From sequence record PZ789432.1: 44,996 nt of DNA. The stretch is one strand, 5' to 3'. Source of the stretch: a phage. Within the stretch, counting starts at the first letter, position 1. Each line of letters begins with the position of its first letter. Position numbers and translations under genes: made by a program. Positions 1 to 44,996 of this stretch are shown here, one piece after another. The notes below the pieces were generated by a model, which was not told the origin of the DNA, did no database searches, and worked only from the letters and a program-made list of their open reading frames with translations.

Positions 1-257
1 GCCCTCGCCGGGTTGCCCCCATATGGGGTAGATCGGCGGTTGACCTAGGAATTGGGCTGGGCTGGTCCGTCTTCGACGGGTGGGCGAGGGCTTGCCGAGG
101 TCTGCTCTTAGTGGCTGCACAAGGAGAACGCCTAGGAAGCGCTAGGGCACGCCTTAGTATTGGACAAGGTGATTGCCTTAGTGAAGCCTCTTAGTGCATT
201 CCTTAGGTCATTCAGGGCGTTTATGAGGGATTGACAGGGTGGATGCGTGTGTGGGCT
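1..257. repeat. left direct terminal repeat of the linear phage genome
   Basis: 1..257 recurs in the same orientation at 44742..44996. Contains the perfect palindrome CCCCATATGGGG at 17..28. The two copies differ by one substitution and a 2-nt indel at the inner edge (ggatgcgtgtgtgggct vs ggatgggtgtgggct). Confidence 0.85.
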
Positions 258-264
258 ATCTGTT
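258..264 (+). terminator. ATCTGTT motif, T7-type class II RNA polymerase pause/termination signal (concatemer-junction-like)
   Basis: Exact ATCTGTT immediately after the inner edge of the left terminal repeat (gtgtgtgggct|ATCTGTTcc), the same position as the T7 CJ pause site. Confidence 0.5.
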
Positions 265-595
265 CCTTTGCTACGCTCACTCACTGGTTCGCTGCGCTGC
301 GGTCAGTCGCTGATGTGTACCTTAGGTTATTCCTTGATGGATGGCTTAGGTTAGCCTTAGTGGACTACCTTAGTTAAAGCCTTAGTGCTTCAGCTTAGTA
401 TCAGCTTAGTAGTGTACCTTAGTCAGTCTTAGTGTCTTCTCTTAGTGATTGCACATGCTAAAGCATGTAAGATGCCATTAGGTCGCGGTCGGTAGACCGC
501 TAAAGAAGGAGAATGGTAATAAGATGCAGTAGGAGGAACACCAGAAACCTAGCCAACCTAGCCTATCCTAGCTCTGTATCTATTGCTTTTCCTTA

Positions 596-3436: not shown

Positions 3437-6064
3437 ATGCAAGACCTACACGCTATTCAACTTCAACTTGAAGAAGAAATGTTTAACGGCGGTATCCGTC
3501 GCTTTGAAGCGGACCAACAACGCCAGATTGCATCCGGTAATGAATCAGACACGGCATGGAATCGCCGCTTATTGTCCGAGTTAATCGCGCCAATGGCTGA
3601 AGGTATTCAGGCTTATAAGGAAGAGTACGAAGGCAAGCGCGGTCGTGCACCACGTGCATTGGCTTTCATTAACTGCGTAGAAAATGAAGTGGCAGCGTAT
3701 ATCACGATGAAAATCGTAATGGATATGCTTAACACTGATGTAACCTTGCAGGCTATAGCCATGAATGTAGCTGACCGCATTGAGGACCAAGTACGTTTTA
3801 GCAAGCTGGAAGGTCACGCCGCCAAATACTTTGAGAAAGTTAAGAAGTCACTTAAGGCAAGTAAGACTAAATCATATCGCCATGCGCACAACGTAGCGGT
3901 CGTGGCTGAGAAGTCAGTAGCTGACCGTGACGCTGATTTCTCTCGCTGGGAGGCGTGGCCTAGAGATACCTTGCTACAAATTGGTATGACCTTGCTAGAA
4001 ATACTGGAAAATAGTGTATTCTTCAATGGTCAGCCTGTCTTTCTTCGCACCTTGCGCACTAATGGTGGCAAGCATGGCGTTTACTACTTACAGACTAGCG
4101 AACACGTGGGTGAATGGATAACTGCATTTAAAGAGCACGTAGCTCAGCTGAGTCCAGCCTATGCACCTTGCGTTATTCCTCCGCGTCCGTGGGTTTCTCC
4201 GTTTAATGGTGGCTTTCACACCGAGAAGGTGGCAAGTCGCATCCGTCTAGTAAAAGGTAACCGTGAGCACGTCCGTAAGCTGACTAAAAAGCAAATGCCA
4301 GCGGTTTACAAGGCTGTTAACGCCTTACAAGCTACTAAGTGGCAGGTTAACAAGGAAGTATTGCAGGTAGTAGAAGATGTTATTCGTCTAGACCTCGGTT
4401 ATGGTGTACCTTCCTTTAAGCCGCTCATTGACCGCGAGAACAAACCAGCTAACCCTGTTCCTCTTGAGTTCCAGCACCTGCGAGGCCGTGAACTTAAAGA
4501 GATGCTAACGCCGGAACAATGGCAAGCCTTTATAAACTGGAAAGGAGAATGTACCAAGCTGTATACCGCTGAAACTAAGCGCGGAAGCAAGTCGGCGGCG
4601 ACCGTTCGCATGGTTGGACAAGCCCGTAAATACAGCCAGTTTGACGCAATTTATTTTGTGTATGCACTGGACAGCCGTTCACGCGTTTATGCGCAATCTA
4701 GCACGCTCTCGCCGCAATCAAACGACTTAGGCAAGGCATTGCTCCGTTTTACCGAAGGGCAGCGTCTTGATAGCACTGAGGCGCTTAAGTGGTTTTTGGT
4801 GAACGGGGCGAATAACTGGGGTTGGGATAAGAAAACTTTTGACGTGCGCACCGCTAACGTGCTGGATAGCGAATTTCAAGACATGTGCCGCGACATTGCA
4901 GCGGATCCGCTGACCTTCACTCAATGGGTAAATGCTGATTCCCCTTATGGCTTCCTTGCATGGTGCTTTGAATATGCGCGTTATCTGGATGCACTGGACG
5001 AAGGAACGCAAGACCAATTCATGACGCACCTACCCGTCCATCAAGATGGTAGTTGCTCTGGTATCCAGCACTATAGCGCGATGTTACGAGATGAAGTAGG
5101 TGCGAAAGCAGTAAACCTTAAGCCTTCTGACTCCCCTCAAGATATTTATGGCGCGGTTGCGCAGGTTGTTATCCAGAAGAATTACGCCTACATGAATGCA
5201 GACGACGCAGTGACTTTCACATCCGGAAGCGTCACACTTACAGGTGCAGAACTGCGTAGCATGGCTAGTGCGTGGGATATGATAGGAATCACTCGCGGCC
5301 TGACCAAAAAGCCCGTAATGACACTACCTTATGGCAGCACACGTCTAACCTGCCGTGAGTCAGTGATTGATTATATCGTTGATTTAGAAGAAAAAGAGGC
5401 CCAACGAGCTATTGCGGAAGGGCGTACCGCCAATCCTGTACACCCTTTTGATAATGACCGTAAGGACAGCCTGACACCTAGCGCAGCTTATAACTATATG
5501 ACAGCTTTAATCTGGCCTTCTATTTCGGAAGTGGTTAAAGCTCCTATAGTGGCGATGAAAATGATTCGTCAGCTTGCCCGTTTCGCAGCTAAAAGGAATG
5601 AAGGCTTAGAGTATACCTTGCCTACTGGCTTCATCTTGCAACAAAAGATTATGGCTACTGATATGCTCCGCGTATCCACTTGCCTGATGGGAGAAATCAA
5701 GATGAGTCTCCAGATTGAAACGGACGTAGTGGATGAAACGGCTATGATGGGCGCTGCTGCTCCTAACTTTGTGCATGGTCATGATGCCAGTCACCTTATC
5801 TTAACGGTCTGCGACCTTGTTGATAAAGGGATTACATCTATCGCAGTAATTCATGATTCTTTTGGCACTCATGCAGGTCGCACCGCAGACCTACGTGATA
5901 GTCTAAGGGCAGAAATGGTGAAGATGTATCAAGGCCGTAACGCTCTGCAAAGCCTGTTAGATGAGCATGAAGAACGCTGGTTAGTAGACACCGGAATCCA
6001 AGTGCCAGAGCAAGGAGAGTTTGACCTTAACGAAATCTTAGTATCTGACTATTGCTTCGCATAA
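3437..6064 (+). CDS. single-subunit DNA-dependent RNA polymerase (SP6-type)
   Basis: 875 aa; N-terminus [32 protein letters not shown] and C-terminus ...[12 protein letters not shown]...[10 protein letters not shown] closely match SP6 RNAP as I remember it; T7-family motifs present ([39 protein letters not shown]). Confidence 0.97.
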
Positions 6065-6320: not shown

Positions 6321-6336
6321 GTCTCACATGTGAGAC
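6321..6336. repeat. 16-bp perfect palindrome GTCTCACATGTGAGAC
   Basis: Same family as 6138..6153; just upstream of a second phage promoter. Confidence 0.8.
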
Positions 6337-6740: not shown

Positions 6741-8728
6741 TGGCTATTATTAATAACATCCCGTGCCCTGCCTGTCAAAAGAATGGACATGATATTACTG
6801 GCAACCATCTTATGATATTTGAGGATGGCGCTGGTTACTGTAACCGTGGTCACTTCCATGATAATGGTAAGCCTTATTACCATAAGCCAGAGGGTGGTAT
6901 CGAGATAACCGAATTGCCTATTACTGGCAATATCAAATATACACCTTCTCAATTCAAAGAAATGGAGAAGGAAGGGAAGATAAGCGACCCTAAGCTACGC
7001 GCCATCGCACTTGGTGGTATGCGTATGAAAGATCGTTGGGAGGTCATGAATGAGCAAGAAAGGGCAGACCAAGAAGCAGAGTGGAAGCTTGATGTTGAAT
7101 GGTTCCTCACGCTTAAGCGTAAGAACCTTGTATCCCGTCACATTCGAGGTGACATCGCAGCAATGTACGATGTGCGCGTTGGACACGATGAAGAGGGAAG
7201 AGTCAACCGTCACTATTATCCACGATATGAAAAGGGTGTGCTTGTTGGAGCAAAATGCCGGACGTTGCCGAAGGATTTTAAGTTCGGACACCTAGGTAAA
7301 CTCTTTGGTATGCAAGACCTTTTCGGTATGAACACTTTGTCTCACGTGTTAGACAAGGGGAGACGAAAGGATTGCTTGCTTATTGTAGGCGGTGAACTTG
7401 ATGCACTAGCAGCGCAGCAGATGCTCCTTGATTCTGCCAAGGGTACTAAGTGGGAAGGCCAGCCATACCATGTATGGTCTGTCAACAAAGGCGAGTCTTG
7501 TCTTGAAGAGATAGTGCAAAACCGTGAGCATATCGCCCAATTCAAGAAGATTATATGGGGTTTTGATGGAGATGAGGTAGGGCAGAAGCAGAATCAGCAA
7601 GCGGCTCGCCTGTTTCCTGGCAAATCCTATATCCTTGAATACCCCTCTGGTTGCAAAGATGCTAACAAGGCATTGATGGCTGGCAAGGCTAAAGAGTTTG
7701 TAGATGCATGGTTTAATGCCAAGTCATCTGATGAAGTCTTTGGTAGCCAGATTAAATCTATCGCATCTCAAAGGGATAAGCTCAAGGCTGCACGTCCAGA
7801 GCAAGGACTATCATGGCCTTGGCCTAAGCTGAACAAGGTCACGCTAGGTATTCGTAAGAACCAACTTATCATTGTAGGCGCAGGCTCTGGTGTAGGTAAG
7901 ACTGAGTTCCTTCGTGAAGTAGTTAAGCACCTCATTGAAGAACACGGTGAATCTGTAGGCATCATTTCTACAGAAGACCCGATGGTCAAGGTGTCCCGTG
8001 CTTTTATCGGCAAGTGGATTGATAAGCGCATTGAGTTACCGCCAACCAACGACCCGAAAGAAGATGGATACCGTGAGGTGTTCGACTACACCGAGGAAGA
8101 GGCTAACGCCGCCATTGATTATGTAGCTGATACAGGTAAGCTGTTTGTAGCTGACCTAGAGGGTGACTATTCGATGGAAAAGGTAGAGCAAACTTGCCTA
8201 GAGTTTGAGGCTATGGGCATTTCTAATATCATCATTGATAACTTAACGGGGATTAAATTAGATGAGCGTGCTTTTGGTGGGAAGGTTGGTGCACTTGATG
8301 AATGCGTCAAGCGGATTGGTACTATCAAAGACCGACACCCGGTTACTATATTCCTTGTATCACACCTTACACGTCCTCCGGCAAACCGTACCCAACACGA
8401 AGAAGGTGGCGAGGTTATCCTTTCTGACTTCCGAGGCTCAGGCGCTATCGGATTCTGGGCATCTTACGCCTTGGGGATTGAGCGTAATACAAGAGCTGAA
8501 ACGCTTGACGAAAGGACTACCACGTACATCTCATGTGTCAAAGACCGCGACCAAGGAATATTTTCCGGTACTCGTATAATGCTTAAAGGTGATATTGCTA
8601 CTGGTCGATTACGTGAACCAGAGCAAAGATCTCGACCGTTTGATACTGGTGCTCCAAAAGAACAAACTGTACCAGAAGAAGTAGTGGATAAAGGAGGATT
8701 TATTGCTGACGAAGTTGAAGAGTTTTGA
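6740..8728 (+). CDS. DNA primase/helicase (T7 gp4-like)
   Basis: 662 aa; N-terminal zinc ribbon CPACQ...CNRGH; Walker A VGAGSGVGKTEF; acidic C-terminus ending EEF. Confidence 0.93.
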   Translation: MAIINNIPCPACQKNGHDITGNHLMIFEDGAGYCNRGHFHDNGKPYYHKPEGGIEITELPITGNIKYTPSQFKEMEKEGKISDPKLRAIALGGMRMKDRWEVMNEQERADQEAEWKLDVEWFLTLKRKNLVSRHIRGDIAAMYDVRVGHDEEGRVNRHYYPRYEKGVLVGAKCRTLPKDFKFGHLGKLFGMQDLFGMNTLSHVLDKGRRKDCLLIVGGELDALAAQQMLLDSAKGTKWEGQPYHVWSVNKGESCLEEIVQNREHIAQFKKIIWGFDGDEVGQKQNQQAARLFPGKSYILEYPSGCKDANKALMAGKAKEFVDAWFNAKSSDEVFGSQIKSIASQRDKLKAARPEQGLSWPWPKLNKVTLGIRKNQLIIVGAGSGVGKTEFLREVVKHLIEEHGESVGIISTEDPMVKVSRAFIGKWIDKRIELPPTNDPKEDGYREVFDYTEEEANAAIDYVADTGKLFVADLEGDYSMEKVEQTCLEFEAMGISNIIIDNLTGIKLDERAFGGKVGALDECVKRIGTIKDRHPVTIFLVSHLTRPPANRTQHEEGGEVILSDFRGSGAIGFWASYALGIERNTRAETLDERTTTYISCVKDRDQGIFSGTRIMLKGDIATGRLREPEQRSRPFDTGAPKEQTVPEEVVDKGGFIADEVEEF

Positions 8729-9191
8729 GGCAGCAGGATATACCATCAAGGAGGATGGTACTATCCTTAACCCTAAAGGTGTAATACTTAAACCGAGCCA
8801 ATCAGGAAGGAAATTAAAGTATTTATATGTAAGTTGGAGACATCAAGGAAGAAGAGTAACAGAGCTTGTACACAGATTGGTTGCTAAGAAGTACATACCC
8901 AACCCACACAGTTTACCAGAAATTCATCATAAAGACTTTAACCCTCTTAATTGTCATAAAGACAATCTTGAATGGACAGATGGTAAGACTAATTGTGAGT
9001 ATAGTTATGCAAGGGTAGAAGCTGCACTTGCACGTCATGCTACTTTATTGTCACCTGATGGCATTAAGTACGACATATTTAATGTTCGTAAATTCTGCCG
9101 CGAACATGGCCTCAATCCACCTAGTGTATTTGAGGTGCTTAGTGGTAAACGGAAGTCACATAAAGGGTGGACTATTTACCGGACACTATAG
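8703..9191 (+). CDS. HNH homing endonuclease
   Basis: 162 aa; EIHHKDFNPLNCHKDNLEW HNH motif. No in-frame ATG; starts at TTG 8703 six nt after AAGGAGG, inside the last 26 nt of the helicase gene. Confidence 0.8.
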   Translation: MLTKLKSFEAAGYTIKEDGTILNPKGVILKPSQSGRKLKYLYVSWRHQGRRVTELVHRLVAKKYIPNPHSLPEIHHKDFNPLNCHKDNLEWTDGKTNCEYSYARVEAALARHATLLSPDGIKYDIFNVRKFCREHGLNPPSVFEVLSGKRKSHKGWTIYRTL

Positions 9192-9387: not shown

Positions 9388-9404
9388 TGTATTTATCAGG
9401 GCTT

Positions 9405-9420
9405 GTCTCACATGTGAGAC
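9405..9420. repeat. 16-bp perfect palindrome GTCTCACATGTGAGAC in a terminator-like context
   Basis: Flanks extend the pairing (gcttgtctcaca/tgtgagacaggc), followed by tcttatt. Confidence 0.8.
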
Positions 9421-9459
9421 AGGCTCTTATTAAGTACATTAAATAACTGGAGATTGATT

Positions 9460-10538: not shown

Positions 10539-10548
10539 GTCAAGGGTT

Positions 10549-10564
10549 GTCTCACACGTGAGAC
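10549..10564. repeat. 16-bp palindrome GTCTCACACGTGAGAC in a terminator-like context
   Basis: Extended stem ggttgtctcac/gtgagacagcc followed by tttcatc. Confidence 0.8.
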
Positions 10565-10595
10565 AGCCTTTCATCATATTGATTGGAGGTGCATT

Positions 10596-32146: not shown

Positions 32147-32163
32147 TACCTAACTCAAGGCTT

Positions 32164-32179
32164 GTCTCACATGTGAGAC
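32164..32179. repeat. 16-bp perfect palindrome GTCTCACATGTGAGAC in a terminator-like context
   Basis: Extended stem cttgtctcaca/tgtgagacagg followed by tcttt. Confidence 0.8.
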
Positions 32180-32210
32180 AGGTCTTTATGATAGGCACTA
32201 TGGAGGAACT

Positions 32211-36506: not shown

Positions 36507-36701
36507 ATGATTAACTCCGAACTGGTAGATAGTGGTGTGAAGCTTGCGCCACCTGCACTCGTATCAGGTGGGTACTTCCTCGGTATCAGTTGGGATAATT
36601 GGGTGTTAATAGCAACATTCATTTATACCGTGTTGCAAATTGGGGACTGGTTTTATAATAAGTTCAAGATTTGGAGGGAGAAGCGTGAGCGTACACAATA
36701 A
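36507..36701 (+). CDS. holin (T7 gp17.5-like)
   Basis: 64 aa; SD AAGGAGG; TM segment and WVLIATFIYTVLQIGDWFYNKFKIWREK paralleling T7 gp17.5 AAIAYTVVQIGAKVVDKMIDWKK. Confidence 0.65.
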   Translation: MINSELVDSGVKLAPPALVSGGYFLGISWDNWVLIATFIYTVLQIGDWFYNKFKIWREKRERTQ

Positions 36702-36984
36702 ACATGCAGCTACAGAGGATGAGGTTGGCATTCTGCATGGTGCTATTACCAAAATCTTCAATAAGAAAGCACAGGCAATACTGGACACTATAGAAGAAGA
36801 CCCTGATGCAGCATTACATTTAGTGTCTGGTAAGGATATTGGTGCGATGTGTAAGTGGGTTCTTGATAACGGCATTACCGCCACACCTGCTGCACAGCAG
36901 GAAGAGTCCAAGTTATCTAAGCGCCTCAAGGCTATCCGAGAGGCATCCAGTGGTAAGATAATTCAATTCACTAAGGAGGATTGA
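36685..36984 (+). CDS. terminase small subunit (T7 gp18-like)
   Basis: ORF track 36640..36984; no in-frame ATG early; GTG 36685 five nt after GGAGGGA; directly upstream of terminase large subunit. Confidence 0.6.
   Translation: MSVHNKHAATEDEVGILHGAITKIFNKKAQAILDTIEEDPDAALHLVSGKDIGAMCKWVLDNGITATPAAQQEESKLSKRLKAIREASSGKIIQFTKED
36778..36800 (+). promoter_or_regulatory. phage RNAP promoter inside the terminase small subunit gene (aatactggacactatagaagaag)
   Basis: Core ACTGGACACTATAGAAGA identical to consensus; +1 G at 36793. Confidence 0.55.
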
Positions 36985-38882
36985 TGGCTAAGGCAAGAGA
37001 ATCACAAGCGGAGGCTCTTGCCAGATGGGAGATGCTACAGGAGTTACAGCAGACCTTTCCTTACACAGCGGAAGGTTTGCTTCTCTTTGCAGATACAGTT
37101 ATTCATAACTTAATTGCAGGCAACCCTCATCTGATTCGTATGCAGGCTGATATCTTGAAGTTCCTATTTTACGGACACAAGTACCGCCTCATCGAAGCGC
37201 CTCGTGGTATCGCTAAGACAACACTATCAGCAATCTATACGGTATTCCGTATTATTCATGAACCGCATAAGCGTATCATGGTTGTGTCCCAAAACGCCAA
37301 GCGAGCAGAGGAAATCGCAGGTTGGGTAGTTAAAATCTTCCGTGGCTTAGACTTTCTTGAGTTTATGCTGCCGGATATCTACGCTGGGGACCGTGCATCC
37401 GTTAAGGCGTTTGAGATTCATTACACCCTACGTGGTAGTGATAAGTCTCCTTCTGTATCCTGTTACTCAATCGAAGCAGGTATGCAGGGTGCTCGTGCTG
37501 ATATTATTCTAGCGGATGACGTAGAGTCGATGCAGAATGCTCGTACGGCAGCGGGCCGTGCCTTGCTTGAGGAACTGACTAAGGAGTTTGAATCTATCAA
37601 CCAGTTTGGGGATATCATTTACCTTGGTACACCTCAGAACGTAAACTCTATCTACAACAACCTACCTGCTCGTGGTTACTCTGTTCGTATCTGGACTGCG
37701 CGTTACCCTTCAGTAGAGCAAGAGCAATGTTATGGCGACTTCCTTGCACCTATGATTGTTCAAGATATGAAGGACAACCCAGCACTTCGCTCAGGGTACG
37801 GGTTGGATGGTAATAGTGGTGCACCTTGTGCCCCTGAAATGTATGATGATGAAGTCCTGATTGAGAAGGAAATCTCTCAGGGTGCTGCTAAGTTCCAGCT
37901 TCAGTTCATGCTTAACACTCGCATGATGGATGCTGACAGATACCCATTACGCCTGAACAATCTAATCTTCACCTCGTTTGGTACAGAGGAAGTCCCTGTG
38001 ATGCCTACGTGGAGTAATGATTCCATAAACATCATTGGTGATGCACCTAAGTATGGTAACAAGCCTACGGATTTCATGTACAGACCTGTAGCTCGCCCAT
38101 ACGAATGGGGTGCTGTCTCCCGCAAGATTATGTATATTGACCCTGCGGGTGGCGGTAAGAATGGGGATGAGACGGGTGTGGCTATCGTATTCCTGCACGG
38201 CACATTCATTTACGTGTATCAGTGCTTCGGTGTGCCGGGTGGATACCGCGAATCGTCCCTGAATCGCATTGTGCAGGCCGCAAAGCAGGCGGGTGTTAAA
38301 GAGGTATTCATTGAGAAGAACTTTGGTCATGGCGCGTTTGAGGCGGTAATTAAGCCGTACTTTGAACGAGAGTGGCCTGTAACTCTGGAAGAGGATTACG
38401 CCACCGGACAGAAAGAATTGCGTATCATTGAGACGCTGGAGCCGCTCATGGCAGCCCATAGGCTTATCTTCAATGCAGAAATGGTGAAGTCAGACTTTGA
38501 GTCGGTACAGCACTATCCGCTTGAACTACGCATGTCCTACAGTCTTTTCAATCAAATGTCGAACATAACGATTGAGAAGAACAGCCTCCGGCACGATGAC
38601 CGCCTAGACGCCCTGTATGGCGCTATACGGCAATTAACTTCTCAGATAGACTATGACGAGGTTACACGGATTAATCGCCTCAGAGCGCAGGAGATGCGAG
38701 ATTACATCCATGCTATGAACACACCTCATCTACGCAGGGCAATGCTATATGGGGATTACGGTACTGAGCGAAGAGTGACCAACACTTCCGTAGCGATGCA
38801 GCAGCGAGTTTACGGGCAGAACTACCGAAATAAATCGGCAAGCAGAAATACACTTTCTGCAAGGATTTCAAGGACTTATTAA
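36984..38882 (+). CDS. terminase large subunit
   Basis: 633 aa (ORF track 36981, ATG 36984); position and size as T7 gp19; acidic nuclease-type segments in C-terminal half. Confidence 0.9.
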   Translation: MAKARESQAEALARWEMLQELQQTFPYTAEGLLLFADTVIHNLIAGNPHLIRMQADILKFLFYGHKYRLIEAPRGIAKTTLSAIYTVFRIIHEPHKRIMVVSQNAKRAEEIAGWVVKIFRGLDFLEFMLPDIYAGDRASVKAFEIHYTLRGSDKSPSVSCYSIEAGMQGARADIILADDVESMQNARTAAGRALLEELTKEFESINQFGDIIYLGTPQNVNSIYNNLPARGYSVRIWTARYPSVEQEQCYGDFLAPMIVQDMKDNPALRSGYGLDGNSGAPCAPEMYDDEVLIEKEISQGAAKFQLQFMLNTRMMDADRYPLRLNNLIFTSFGTEEVPVMPTWSNDSINIIGDAPKYGNKPTDFMYRPVARPYEWGAVSRKIMYIDPAGGGKNGDETGVAIVFLHGTFIYVYQCFGVPGGYRESSLNRIVQAAKQAGVKEVFIEKNFGHGAFEAVIKPYFEREWPVTLEEDYATGQKELRIIETLEPLMAAHRLIFNAEMVKSDFESVQHYPLELRMSYSLFNQMSNITIEKNSLRHDDRLDALYGAIRQLTSQIDYDEVTRINRLRAQEMRDYIHAMNTPHLRRAMLYGDYGTERRVTNTSVAMQQRVYGQNYRNKSASRNTLSARISRTY

Positions 38883-38902: not shown

Positions 38903-39037
38903 AAGGCCCAGATAATAAGAGAAAATAATAGGTAATATATAGGTTAACCTAGGTTATATAGGTATGCCTTAGTATGGGTGTACTCCTGTACACCCTATTC
39001 CTTACTACCTTACTATATTTACATAATAGGAGAGACA

Positions 39038-39316
39038 ATGGCTAATGATTATAGTAGTCAACCATTAACAGGTAAGTCTAAGAGAAAGCAGGTACAACCT
39101 GTAAGTGAAGAACTAATGCTTCCGGTAATCAAAAAAGAGGAAGCTAGTAAGAAAAACAATGCTATTAATGATGCCACCAAATCAGGTAAACAGAAAGGGG
39201 CCATGGTGTGCCTTGAAGTGGAAGGTGGTGTATTGAAGATTGCTATCGCGGTTGATGGCAAAGAAGATTCAGAGTGGAAGTTAGTAACAGTGGAACCAGT
39301 TGTTAACCCAGTTTAA
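39038..39316 (+). CDS. hypothetical protein (92 aa), paralog A of a tandem pair
   Basis: ORF track 38978..39316 (GTG); ATG 39038 after AGGAG; shares SGKQKGAMV.LE...L.IA.A motif with the next ORF. Confidence 0.65.
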   Translation: MANDYSSQPLTGKSKRKQVQPVSEELMLPVIKKEEASKKNNAINDATKSGKQKGAMVCLEVEGGVLKIAIAVDGKEDSEWKLVTVEPVVNPV

Positions 39317-39334: not shown

Positions 39335-39628
39335 ATGGCTAAATATGGTACTAAAGGTTCTGTTACGGGTCAGGCTTTTCGAGTGAAAGCAGTACAAACT
39401 ATTGCAACGGCAATCCCGATGCCTGTTGTTAAAGAAGTAGACCTTAAGAGTAAAGATCACCCTATCAACATCAAACATTTATCAGGTAAACAGAAAGGTG
39501 CAATGGTTGCTCTTGAGAAAAGTGACACAACCTTACATATTGCTGTTGCACGTGGTAGTGAACCAACAGACCCTTGGGATGTAACTGGCATGGACTCGCT
39601 CGCTGTCACTCCAGCAGGTGGAGAATAA
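39335..39628 (+). CDS. hypothetical protein (97 aa), paralog B of a tandem pair
   Basis: ORF track; SD AAGGAGG; LSGKQKGAMVALEKSDTTLHIAVARG parallels KSGKQKGAMVCLEVEGGVLKIAIAVDG upstream. Confidence 0.7.
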   Translation: MAKYGTKGSVTGQAFRVKAVQTIATAIPMPVVKEVDLKSKDHPINIKHLSGKQKGAMVALEKSDTTLHIAVARGSEPTDPWDVTGMDSLAVTPAGGE

Positions 39629-40564: not shown

Positions 40565-40588
40565 GATTTACTGGACACTATAGAAGAG
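40565..40588 (+). promoter_or_regulatory. phage RNAP promoter upstream of the tailspike genes (gatttactggacactatagaagagg)
   Basis: Exact consensus; +1 G at 40583. Confidence 0.8.
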
Positions 40589-42652: not shown

Positions 42653-44365
42653 ATGCTTCAAAGATTAAGTGCTTACTTGGTGAAGTACAAGAGTAAACTA
42701 ACAGGTACTATTGAGCGCCTGCTATCTGATAAACTATCGGATACAATAGACGTTGCGGATTTTGGAGTTAATCCCTCTTCTAATGACAACAGGCAAGCCC
42801 TTCAAGCTGCATTCAATGCGGTCAGATTGCTAGGCGGTGGTACTGTATCAGTCACTAAAGCTGGCGAATATAAACTCAGTGGTACTGTTGAGATATTTGC
42901 TAATACACACTTCAAGGTTGCTAAAGGTGTAACATTTGTACGTGACTACGAAACAGGAGATACGCTATTCAGATTATCACAAGGGCAAGCTAGTAATGTA
43001 ACAGTCAGTGGAGGTATCTATGAAGGCAATGGTCACACTAAGGGAGATACACCTTTTGTAGTATTTGCATCTACTAGTAATAATGATTTGAAGTTTGAAG
43101 GCATAACAGTTAACAATGTAGTGGACTACCACGCCATAGATTTAGCAGATTGGAACAACGTAGTTATTCGTGATTGTAAATTCCTAGGGTTTAAGAATAC
43201 AGGCAGTCGTAACTTCTCAGAGGCTATACAGTTAGACCCAGGTCTTATTACAGTTGGTCACTATGTACAGTCAAGCGGTATGCTGGTGGAGAATTGCTAT
43301 GCTGGTCCAAACCCAGAATCAGGGTTTGGGGGTTATGGTGCACTAATCGGAAATCACGCCTCAGCTTATGGTGTACAGGACAACAATATCCGTATCTTGA
43401 ATTGCACTACAGATGGTGCTCTCTTTGCAGGTGTACGTGTATTTAACTGGAAAAACTGGACAGTACGTGGTTGTACCTTTAGAAACTCTAATGCAAGAGG
43501 TGTTCATGTTACACCTGTCTCCTCTCAAACTAAACCGCAAGGAACTCGACAAGGTAGTGTTGTAGATTGTACTTTTGATGGCGTAAGAACACCAGTGCTA
43601 ATTGCTGCACCATCTTGGCCTTTTACAGATATTAGTGACATTTGGCATGACCATATTGAAATTTCTAATAATACTATGATCCTCACAGAGGATGTATCCT
43701 ATGGTGTAGATGCAAGGTGGTGTAAGAATTTAATTGTAAAAGGTAACACTGGTTCTGGCGGCTTAGGGTTAATCGGTTTACGCTTTGGAACAAAGTACCA
43801 CATCGAAGGTAATACTTGGGAAAACGGAAGAGGTAGTGGGATTTGGTTAGGTGAGTCTGATGCTACTACATTCATTGGTACTGGCTTATCTGGAGAAGGT
43901 ATACTTAGTCGTAATATCCTCTCTAAATTAGGGCAATATGGTATTCATGTAAACTGCAAGGCTGGCGGTCTAGTGATTAAAGCTAATAATATGAAGGAAG
44001 TATCTACAGCTGAAGCAGGTAGGCACTTCATTAGCATAGACACAGGAGCTAACAACATCCTAGTAGAAGGTAATATTGGAGTAGATGGAGAAAGCCCTAA
44101 CAAGCCAAGCTTGGGTATTCGTGTTACTTCTTCTTGTTCCAATATTAAACTCATTGGCAATGATTGCTATGGTACACAGGCGCCTCAGAATAACCAAGGG
44201 GTTGGTTCTAGTACGGTGATTGTTTATGGACTAAATGGCAATCCTACAACTTTAGGCGTAGGTGCACCTGTTGGCTCTTTAGCAACTGATATCAATGGGT
44301 CTGGTGGTAGTACATTGTACGTTAAAGAATCTGGTACATCTGCTCAAGGTTGGGTTGCAAAGTAG
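42653..44365 (+). CDS. tailspike 2 (pectate-lyase-fold beta-helix depolymerase)
   Basis: 570 aa; SD AAGGAGG; N-terminal DVADFGVNPSSNDNRQALQAAFNA...GGGTV typical of pectate-lyase-type tailspikes, followed by beta-helix-like repeats. Confidence 0.85.
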   Translation: MLQRLSAYLVKYKSKLTGTIERLLSDKLSDTIDVADFGVNPSSNDNRQALQAAFNAVRLLGGGTVSVTKAGEYKLSGTVEIFANTHFKVAKGVTFVRDYETGDTLFRLSQGQASNVTVSGGIYEGNGHTKGDTPFVVFASTSNNDLKFEGITVNNVVDYHAIDLADWNNVVIRDCKFLGFKNTGSRNFSEAIQLDPGLITVGHYVQSSGMLVENCYAGPNPESGFGGYGALIGNHASAYGVQDNNIRILNCTTDGALFAGVRVFNWKNWTVRGCTFRNSNARGVHVTPVSSQTKPQGTRQGSVVDCTFDGVRTPVLIAAPSWPFTDISDIWHDHIEISNNTMILTEDVSYGVDARWCKNLIVKGNTGSGGLGLIGLRFGTKYHIEGNTWENGRGSGIWLGESDATTFIGTGLSGEGILSRNILSKLGQYGIHVNCKAGGLVIKANNMKEVSTAEAGRHFISIDTGANNILVEGNIGVDGESPNKPSLGIRVTSSCSNIKLIGNDCYGTQAPQNNQGVGSSTVIVYGLNGNPTTLGVGAPVGSLATDINGSGGSTLYVKESGTSAQGWVAK

Positions 44366-44376
44366 TAGGAAGTTGA

Positions 44377-44526
44377 ATGCCATTAATCAAATCAGTTAAG
44401 CAAAGTGCTGTACGCCAGAACACAGAAGAGCTTATTCAATCAGGCCGTGACCCTAAGCAGGCTTATGCCATTGCCAAGGATGTACAACGTCGTGCCATGA
44501 AGAAACCTTCTGCATCTTCTGCGTAA
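44377..44526 (+). CDS. hypothetical small basic protein (49 aa)
   Basis: ATG 44377 after AGGAAG; MPLIKSVKQSAVRQNTEELIQSGRDPKQAYAIAKDVQRRAMKKPSASSA. Confidence 0.45.
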   Translation: MPLIKSVKQSAVRQNTEELIQSGRDPKQAYAIAKDVQRRAMKKPSASSA

Positions 44527-44597
44527 GCAAGTTAATATCTTAGTGTACACAAGGGCAGACCTAGGTTTGCTCTTAGTGTATTTACAATGGAGGTCTT

Positions 44598-44678
44598 ATG
44601 TATATACCTATGGAAGCAATAGTAGGTTGCCTATGCTTGTTGATAGGTTTCGTTATAGGCTTAATAGCAAATCCTTAG
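44598..44678 (+). CDS. hypothetical small hydrophobic peptide (26 aa)
   Basis: ATG 44598 after TGGAGG; weak. Confidence 0.25.
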   Translation: MYIPMEAIVGCLCLLIGFVIGLIANP

Positions 44679-44741
44679 TCCTGTACAAGGATTAACCAAG
44701 TCAAAATTTTGATGTAGGCGTGTGTCAGCTCTCTCGCCCTC

Positions 44742-44996
44742 GCCCTCGCCGGGTTGCCCCCATATGGGGTAGATCGGCGGTTGACCTAGGAATTGGGCTG
44801 GGCTGGTCCGTCTTCGACGGGTGGGCGAGGGCTTGCCGAGGTCTGCTCTTAGTGGCTGCACAAGGAGAACGCCTAGGAAGCGCTAGGGCACGCCTTAGTA
44901 TTGGACAAGGTGATTGCCTTAGTGAAGCCTCTTAGTGCATTCCTTAGGTCATTCAGGGCGTTTATGAGGGATTGACAGGGTGGATGGGTGTGGGCT
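44742..44996. repeat. right direct terminal repeat
   Basis: Same orientation copy of 1..257; preceded by extra ctcgccctcgccctcgcc units that the truncated left copy does not show. Confidence 0.85.

Follow-up and report, generated by a model that had tools for sequence, protein, structure and literature searches.

Concatemer-junction architecture and non-identical terminal repeats in the genome record of an SP6-like phage

The phage genome record PZ789432.1 begins and ends with the same sequence in the same orientation, and the two copies of that sequence are not quite identical. This raises two questions, namely, whether the repeat marks a concatemer junction of the kind described for phage T7 and why its two copies should differ. 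We analyzed the whole record, a stretch of 44,996 nucleotides that we refer to as the window, together with the genome ends of related phages.

The repeat and the genome that carries it

A direct repeat was found at both ends of the window, along with a short extension that precedes one of its copies:

1..257, + strand: left repeat copy as recorded, homologous to the repeats of K1-5, K1E, and SP6
44742..44996, + strand: right repeat copy as recorded, ending in GGGCT
44730..44741, + strand: TCTCTCGCCCTC, present only ahead of the right copy, extending the CTCGCC units past the start of the left copy

Positions 1-245 match 44742-44986 exactly, and a chance origin is impossible for an exact repeat of 245 nt. 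After the exact part, C246 is opposed to G44987, and five matching bases follow (250/251 identical). The left copy then has two more bases than the right copy (GT within 248-252), after which a shared GGGCT completes each copy (253-257 and 44992-44996). The difference can also be written as one block change, with CGT on the left and G on the right. These results bear out a first-pass annotation made from the window alone, which had described a terminal repeat of ~255 bp, copies that differ by a substitution and a 2-nt indel, and extra CTCGCC units upstream of the right copy.

PZ789432.1 is a complete linear genome of an SP6-like podophage (Vectrevirus, the K1E/K1-5/SP6 group). Its ends share 81-93% identity with Vectrevirus records (K1E, K1-5, and relatives), and its structural genes reach up to 98%. 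A search of the phage collection returned no record identical to PZ789432.1 and nothing above 93% at the ends. An ORF scan of the whole genome placed every large ORF on the + strand, and Pfam searches recovered an Ocr homolog as well as the polymerase and terminase genes listed here. A promoter scan identified 10 SP6-type phage promoters, all on the + strand, with the consensus TTACTGGACACTATAGAAG.

3437..6064, + strand: SP6-type single-subunit RNA polymerase, 875 aa (Pfam RNA_pol, 5.7e-90; RPOL_N, 1.9e-31)
36640-36984, + strand: T7-type terminase small subunit (Pfam DNA_Packaging_2, 5e-16)
36981-38882, + strand: T7-type terminase large subunit (Pfam Terminase-T7_RNaseH-like, 1.6e-35)
40568..40586, + strand: tenth and last SP6-type promoter

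The phage polymerase shares 32% identity with T7 RNA polymerase over its full length. Transcripts from the promoter at 40568..40586 head rightward to the right repeat copy and, in a concatemer, into the ATCTGTT motif that follows the repeat. A scan of 43000-44996 returned no strong intrinsic terminator; the hairpins at 43404-43419 and 44551-44574 have no strong T run. A tblastn search of T7 gp3.5 against the genome gave no credible match to this amidase (lysozyme), which is absent from the SP6 annotation too.

Members of the T7 supergroup (Autographiviridae) carry a short, exact direct terminal repeat. PZ789432.1 has a same-orientation repeat at both linear ends, and this repeat is homologous to those of recognized members, aligning along its whole length with the repeats of K1-5, K1E, other Vectrevirus, and SP6 (81-93% identity against Vectrevirus; 16-genome alignment). 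It also encodes a T7-type terminase (gp18-like and gp19-like) and a phage single-subunit RNA polymerase. What it lacks is identity between the two copies.

Several other features of the genome were recorded along the way. At 8703-9191, between the primase/helicase and the genes that follow, lies an ORF of 162 aa whose HNH_3 and I-HmuI NUMOD-like matches are weak (E ~4e-4, below the Pfam cutoffs); it may be a homing endonuclease. A 36-nt stretch occurs twice with 83% identity, 300 nt apart (39181-39216 and 39481-39516), in the neighboring small ORFs 38978-39316 and 39335-39628; these have no Pfam match and are probably tandem paralogs, like SP6 gp42/gp43. In the early region, GCTCTTTAACAA, which we take to be the boxA antitermination sequence of Escherichia coli rrn operons, has three exact copies (747-758, 1292-1303, and 1504-1515) versus 0.36 expected, which suggests that early-gene transcription by the host polymerase is made termination resistant. 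Finally, a family of ~35-nt elements (9396-9430, 10540-10574, and 32155-32189) has the perfect palindrome GTCTCACATGTGAGAC at its base, with a T-rich tail behind it, and the core is also found at 6323-6334. In phage transcripts, these elements may act as hairpin terminators or as RNase III sites.

Record ends and conserved blocks of the junction

To compare termini, we used seven records with both ends read, T7 and six SP6-like phages, whose repeats have the following lengths:

T7: 160 bp
SP6: 174 bp
K1-5: 234 bp
Mt1B1_P10: 267 bp
KAW1A4500: 267 bp
Ro_P3a: 283 bp
mutPK1A2: 286 bp

The left and right copies are exactly identical in all seven. This agrees with the earlier view that non-identical copies are anomalous for true terminal repeats.

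The comparators also differ from PZ789432.1 in where they end. All six SP6-like right ends read ...GTGGGCTA (GGGCTA), and PZ789432.1 stops one base short at ...GTGGGCT. SP6-like left ends start with TCTCTCGG (SP6), TCTCGCC, CTCGCC, or TCGCC, which correspond to 44730-44734 in the right copy and fall 8-12 nt outside the first base of the left copy. The SP6 genome starts with TCTCTCGGCC and has the same context there (GTGTGTCAGC/TCTCTCG, with the slash at the terminus); T7 and T3 left ends start with TCTC as well. Since comparator termini lie outside those of this record at both ends, the record looks trimmed at both tips. Judged by its relatives, it probably lacks 8-12 nt at the left end and 1 nt at the right end. 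The true left end is predicted, probably, at ~44730-44734 (TCTCTCGCC...), with TCTCTCGCCCTC as the probable outermost part of the true repeat. The actual repeat would then probably measure ~264-270 rather than the recorded 255-257, in a family whose range is 174-286. A suspicion raised at first pass, that the real repeat might be longer than it appears, is supported by these comparisons.

One comparator has an irregularity of its own. PQ197423.1 (Raoultella phage vB_Ro_P3a) reads GGGCTAATCTGTT at 278-290, with one extra A at the repeat edge relative to all other junctions, and is flagged as circular despite a 283-bp repeat at both ends. Both features are probably curation artefacts in that record.

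We then reconstructed and aligned the concatemer junctions of 16 SP6-like genomes, comprising PZ789432.1 and 15 relatives. The alignment revealed the following conserved blocks:

3-11: CCTCGCCGG, invariant across the 16 junctions
17-23: CCCCATA, invariant in 16/16 junctions
231..237, + strand: TTGACAG, invariant in 16/16 junctions, ~20 nt inside the inner repeat edge
251..265, + strand: GTGGGCTATCTGTTC, invariant in 16/16 junctions, holding the inner boundary (257/258) and T-ATCTGTT (257-264)
44697..44725, + strand: conserved block AAGTCAAAATTTTGAT.TAGGCGTGTGT, just outside the right copy
44701-44712: palindrome TCAAAATTTTGA within the preceding block, ~20 nt outside the right copy, invariant in the 16 junctions

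Near the left end, CCCCATA lies within a 12-bp palindrome, CCCCATATGGGG, that a whole-genome search located only at 17-28 and 44758-44769. The palindrome had been singled out at first pass and is real as a sequence feature. Its symmetry is incidental, and only the CCCCATA core is conserved. Perfect 12-bp palindromes occur in the genome at chance level (13 versus 11.0 +/- 3.3 in shuffles), and palindromy is absent in K1-5 and SP6 (CCCCATAGGG) and in T3 (CCCCATAGCCCC, which cannot form a hairpin). A hairpin reading of CCCCATATGGGG was rejected, as its fold was no better than that of shuffles (z = 0.02). The core, in turn, sits 27-30 nt from the left terminus in T7, T3, and SP6, a fixed distance that argues for a sequence-specific left-end site and not a hairpin; plausibly, CCCCATA is such a site for end recognition. 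If the terminus is placed at 44730, the offset here is 29, identical to that of SP6, which provides independent support for 44730 as the true left end.

TTGACAG and the block at 44697..44725, including TCAAAATTTTGA, are candidate packaging or processing signals. TTGACAG is possibly part of an end-recognition site or a -35-like hexamer. A sigma-70 promoter formed by TTGACA (231-236) and TATCTG was considered and discarded; the spacer would be 18-20 nt, and the promoter scan found no acceptable -10 element. At 44694-44700, the window lacks one A, having AACC-AAGTC in place of the AACCAAAGTC that stands in an invariant block of all 15 relatives, SP6 included. This one-base homopolymer difference is either a real mutation or imperfect sequence near the right end.

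The window also carries a reiterated hexamer, CTTAGT (often CCTTAGT), always on the + strand, at 107-195, 356-446, 592-768, and 44539-44936. The first 770 nt hold 17 copies and the last 460 nt hold 7; the whole genome has 61 versus 30.6 expected. These arrays look like the SP6-group counterpart of the short arrays that flank the T7 repeat, which we take to be CCTAAAG heptamers.

The ATCTGTT motif at the inner repeat edge

ATCTGTT is located at 258-264 on the + strand, directly 3' of the last base shared by the two repeat copies and exactly where the first-pass annotation had placed it. The same motif abuts the repeat in T7 (161-167, after a 160-bp repeat) and T3 (232-238, after 231 bp). It also sits at the repeat edge in SP6 (174-180) and K1-5 (234-240), and at the inner edge in 11 SP6-like junctions besides those two; its position is conserved in Mt1B1_P10. 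It was reportedly noted there already in the SP6 and K1-5 genome papers. This arrangement is already known as the concatemer-junction architecture of T7-supergroup phages.

The motif had been identified with the class II pause and termination signal that T7 RNA polymerase recognizes at the concatemer junction. Its position supports that identification, with the refinement that the polymerase here is SP6 type and that its recognition of the motif is presumed by analogy. The class II signal requires HATCTGTT (H = A, C, or T) on the non-template strand (PMC11347151; bioRxiv 10.64898/2026.02.12.705533). In PZ789432.1, T257 precedes ATCTGTT on the + strand, and in the junction the motif stands at the right (inner) edge of the repeat, in the direction of late transcription. 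Its effect is exerted 6-8 nt beyond the motif (bioRxiv 10.1101/2021.01.11.426313). Whether the transcript is released or the polymerase only pauses depends on a T-rich tract downstream. There, the window reads CCTTTGC, most relatives read CGTTTC, and T7 reads ACAGTCT. The short T run differs both from the TTTT of strong class II terminators and from the T-poor context of T7.

When both strands are counted, ATCTGTT is not enriched in the genome (4 copies versus 7.8 expected). The sense strand of PZ789432.1, SP6, K1-5, and T7, by comparison, carries exactly one copy per genome, at the repeat edge, versus 2.6-3.7 expected, and antisense copies in the same four genomes (1-4) match chance. The probability of zero other sense copies is ~0.03-0.07 per genome, which is weak for any single genome, and the three SP6-like genomes are related. 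Even so, T7 shows the pattern again, and the position agrees to the base. The motif is thus co-oriented with transcription by the phage polymerase, as all genes and promoters are on the + strand, and is avoided elsewhere on the sense strand. Such orientation-specific avoidance is predicted for a transcription signal. A scan of IMG/VR with the 14-mer GTGGGCTATCTGTT was abandoned, as it returned mostly chance matches and only ~8 related loci.

How much of the T7 mechanism would carry over is less certain. Loop 172-179 of T7 RNA polymerase, which is involved in class II recognition, is not clearly conserved here, and the alignment is too loose to judge residues 172-173, on which class II recognition depends. 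Together with the lack of a gp3.5 homolog, this means that the T7 mechanism may not transfer in full. If pausing at ATCTGTT is used by the SP6-type polymerase, it would work without a lysozyme partner. The literature searched contained no test of an SP6-type polymerase at its own junction.

It is also conceivable that the conserved CTATCTGTT serves mainly as a terminase recognition and cleavage site rather than as a pause signal, its likeness to the T7 class II signal being due to shared cut-site ancestry. The cut site either overlaps the motif or adjoins it (GGGCTA/TCTGTT in six SP6-like records and CCCT/ATCTGTT in T7), the invariant block of 15 nt exceeds the 8 nt needed for class II function, and SP6-like phages do without the lysozyme partner that T7 uses. 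Against this, avoidance on the sense strand only fits an orientation-dependent transcription signal, and the pause function in T7 is described as genetically supported in the part of PMC3276506 that cites Zhang and Studier (2004). The two roles of CTATCTGTT are not mutually exclusive, and we give a mainly terminase-directed role a minor but appreciable chance.

Compared with the T7 class II signal, then, the motif in PZ789432.1 shares the HATCTGTT sequence on the non-template strand, its place directly after the repeat, its orientation, and its status as the sole sense-strand copy, while the polymerase, the missing gp3.5 homolog, and the downstream context set it apart. The repeats of T7 and T3 have the same organization, with a TCTC left tip, CCCCATA ~27-30 nt in, oligomer arrays in and beside the repeat (CCTAAAG in T7 versus CTTAGT here), and the inner ATCTGTT; beyond those short motifs, they have no alignable similarity to PZ789432.1. 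The repeats of Vectrevirus and SP6 have in common with it the outer CTCGCC units, CCCCATA, TTGACAG, the inner GTGGGCTATCTGTTC, and the AAGTCAAAATTTTGA block outside the right copy. PZ789432.1 departs from them in its non-identical copies, in tips that are shorter on both sides, and in its own version of a G/T tract near the inner edge.

The mismatch between copies and its implications

Both differences between the left and right copies fall within this tract:

238..250 (right equivalent 44979-44989), + strand: hypervariable G/T tract, from the alignment

The tract lies between TTGACAG and GTGGGCT, and hardly any two phages have the same version of it; its length varies by 0, +2, or +4. It is located just inside the cut site and is a hotspot of length and sequence change among the aligned genomes. 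The right-copy tract has the modal length, which is common to 13 of the 15 relatives, and its sequence (GGATGGGT) is one base from that of the nearest relative (GGATGGGC). The left-copy tract is 2 nt longer, a length that is also found in one relative from IMG/VR. Signs as to which copy is correct conflict. The left variant is ~250 nt inside the record, where the consensus should be good, and the right variant is of modal length and nearly identical to that of the closest relative. We searched for an independent assembly of the same phage with a degenerate pattern covering both variants and obtained no match in IMG/VR or JGI metagenomes; exact-protein look-ups with the tailspike, polymerase, and Ocr ORFs gave no match either.

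In T7-like phages, each concatemer junction contains a single repeat copy, and the second copy is synthesized at packaging (PMC10438801). With such single-copy junctions, a difference between left and right is not stably heritable, and any allele would be at both ends equally after one growth cycle. The most likely source of the mismatches is that the repeat was imperfectly finished or polished at the ends of the record, which we infer from the identical copies in all seven comparators, the trimming of both tips, and the A missing from AACCAAAGTC. For T7-like phages, assemblies with truncated terminal repeats and with repeat indels left uncorrected have been documented (PMC10438801). An end-assembly artefact, as proposed at first pass, thus remains the likely cause, or else a mixed stock.

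The latter is the next most likely cause, although we consider it unlikely in its own right. Both variants would be real alleles of the tract that coexist in the stock, with the assembler or consensus caller having put one at each end. The tract mutates readily, as its variation in sequence and length among close relatives shows, and both recorded lengths are found in nature. Concatemer replication would spread the alleles equally to both ends, and a mix of ~50:50 could yield a discordant consensus. No such discordance is seen in any of the seven comparator records, however, and plaque-purified stocks are usually clonal; moreover, the trimmed termini and the missing A in an invariant block point to general problems of end quality. 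Less probable still is a difference that is real, in which a slippage-prone G/T tract just inside the cleavage and pause site changes when fill-in synthesis generates the second repeat copy at packaging. If this were true, virions or whole stocks would have non-identical ends, and the process would drive the rapid turnover of the tract among relatives. We find it barely credible that the repeat is truly imperfect, with homology ending at 245/44986 and the last 10-12 nt being end specific and kept separately. The raw record alone would allow this, as the copies differ from 246 onward, but the final GGGCT is again common to both, in all relatives the tract belongs to a repeat whose two copies match exactly, and end-specific variants could not be maintained by single-copy junctions (PMC10438801).

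The best explanation overall, to which we assign a probability of about 0.78, is that PZ789432.1 is an SP6-like genome with a T7-supergroup repeat and pause-motif junction and that the mismatches between copies come from finishing of the record. Under this explanation, replicating genomes would be linked head to tail, each junction containing a single repeat copy, and late transcripts made by the phage single-subunit RNA polymerase would run rightward through that junction. The polymerase would meet T-ATCTGTT on the non-template strand exactly at the end of the repeat and, by analogy with T7, may pause a few bases downstream of it. We infer that the paused complex would help the T7-type terminase to start maturation. 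A terminase cut at ...GGGCT(A)/TCTGTT would create the right genome end, and subsequent duplication of the repeat would leave each packaged genome with a copy at both ends. Because both copies would descend from single-copy junctions, they should be identical.

For practical purposes, the record needs correction at both tips before it serves as a reference, for engineering, or for any end-dependent use, such as work on packaging signals or cell-free rebooting. For the biology of the group, the locus holds little news and is one more example of a T7-supergroup concatemer junction. It does show that the nine-base CTATCTGTT at the repeat edge, with no other copy on the sense strand, is common to T7 and the distant SP6 group, and that this pattern persists although the SP6 group is without the lysozyme partner.
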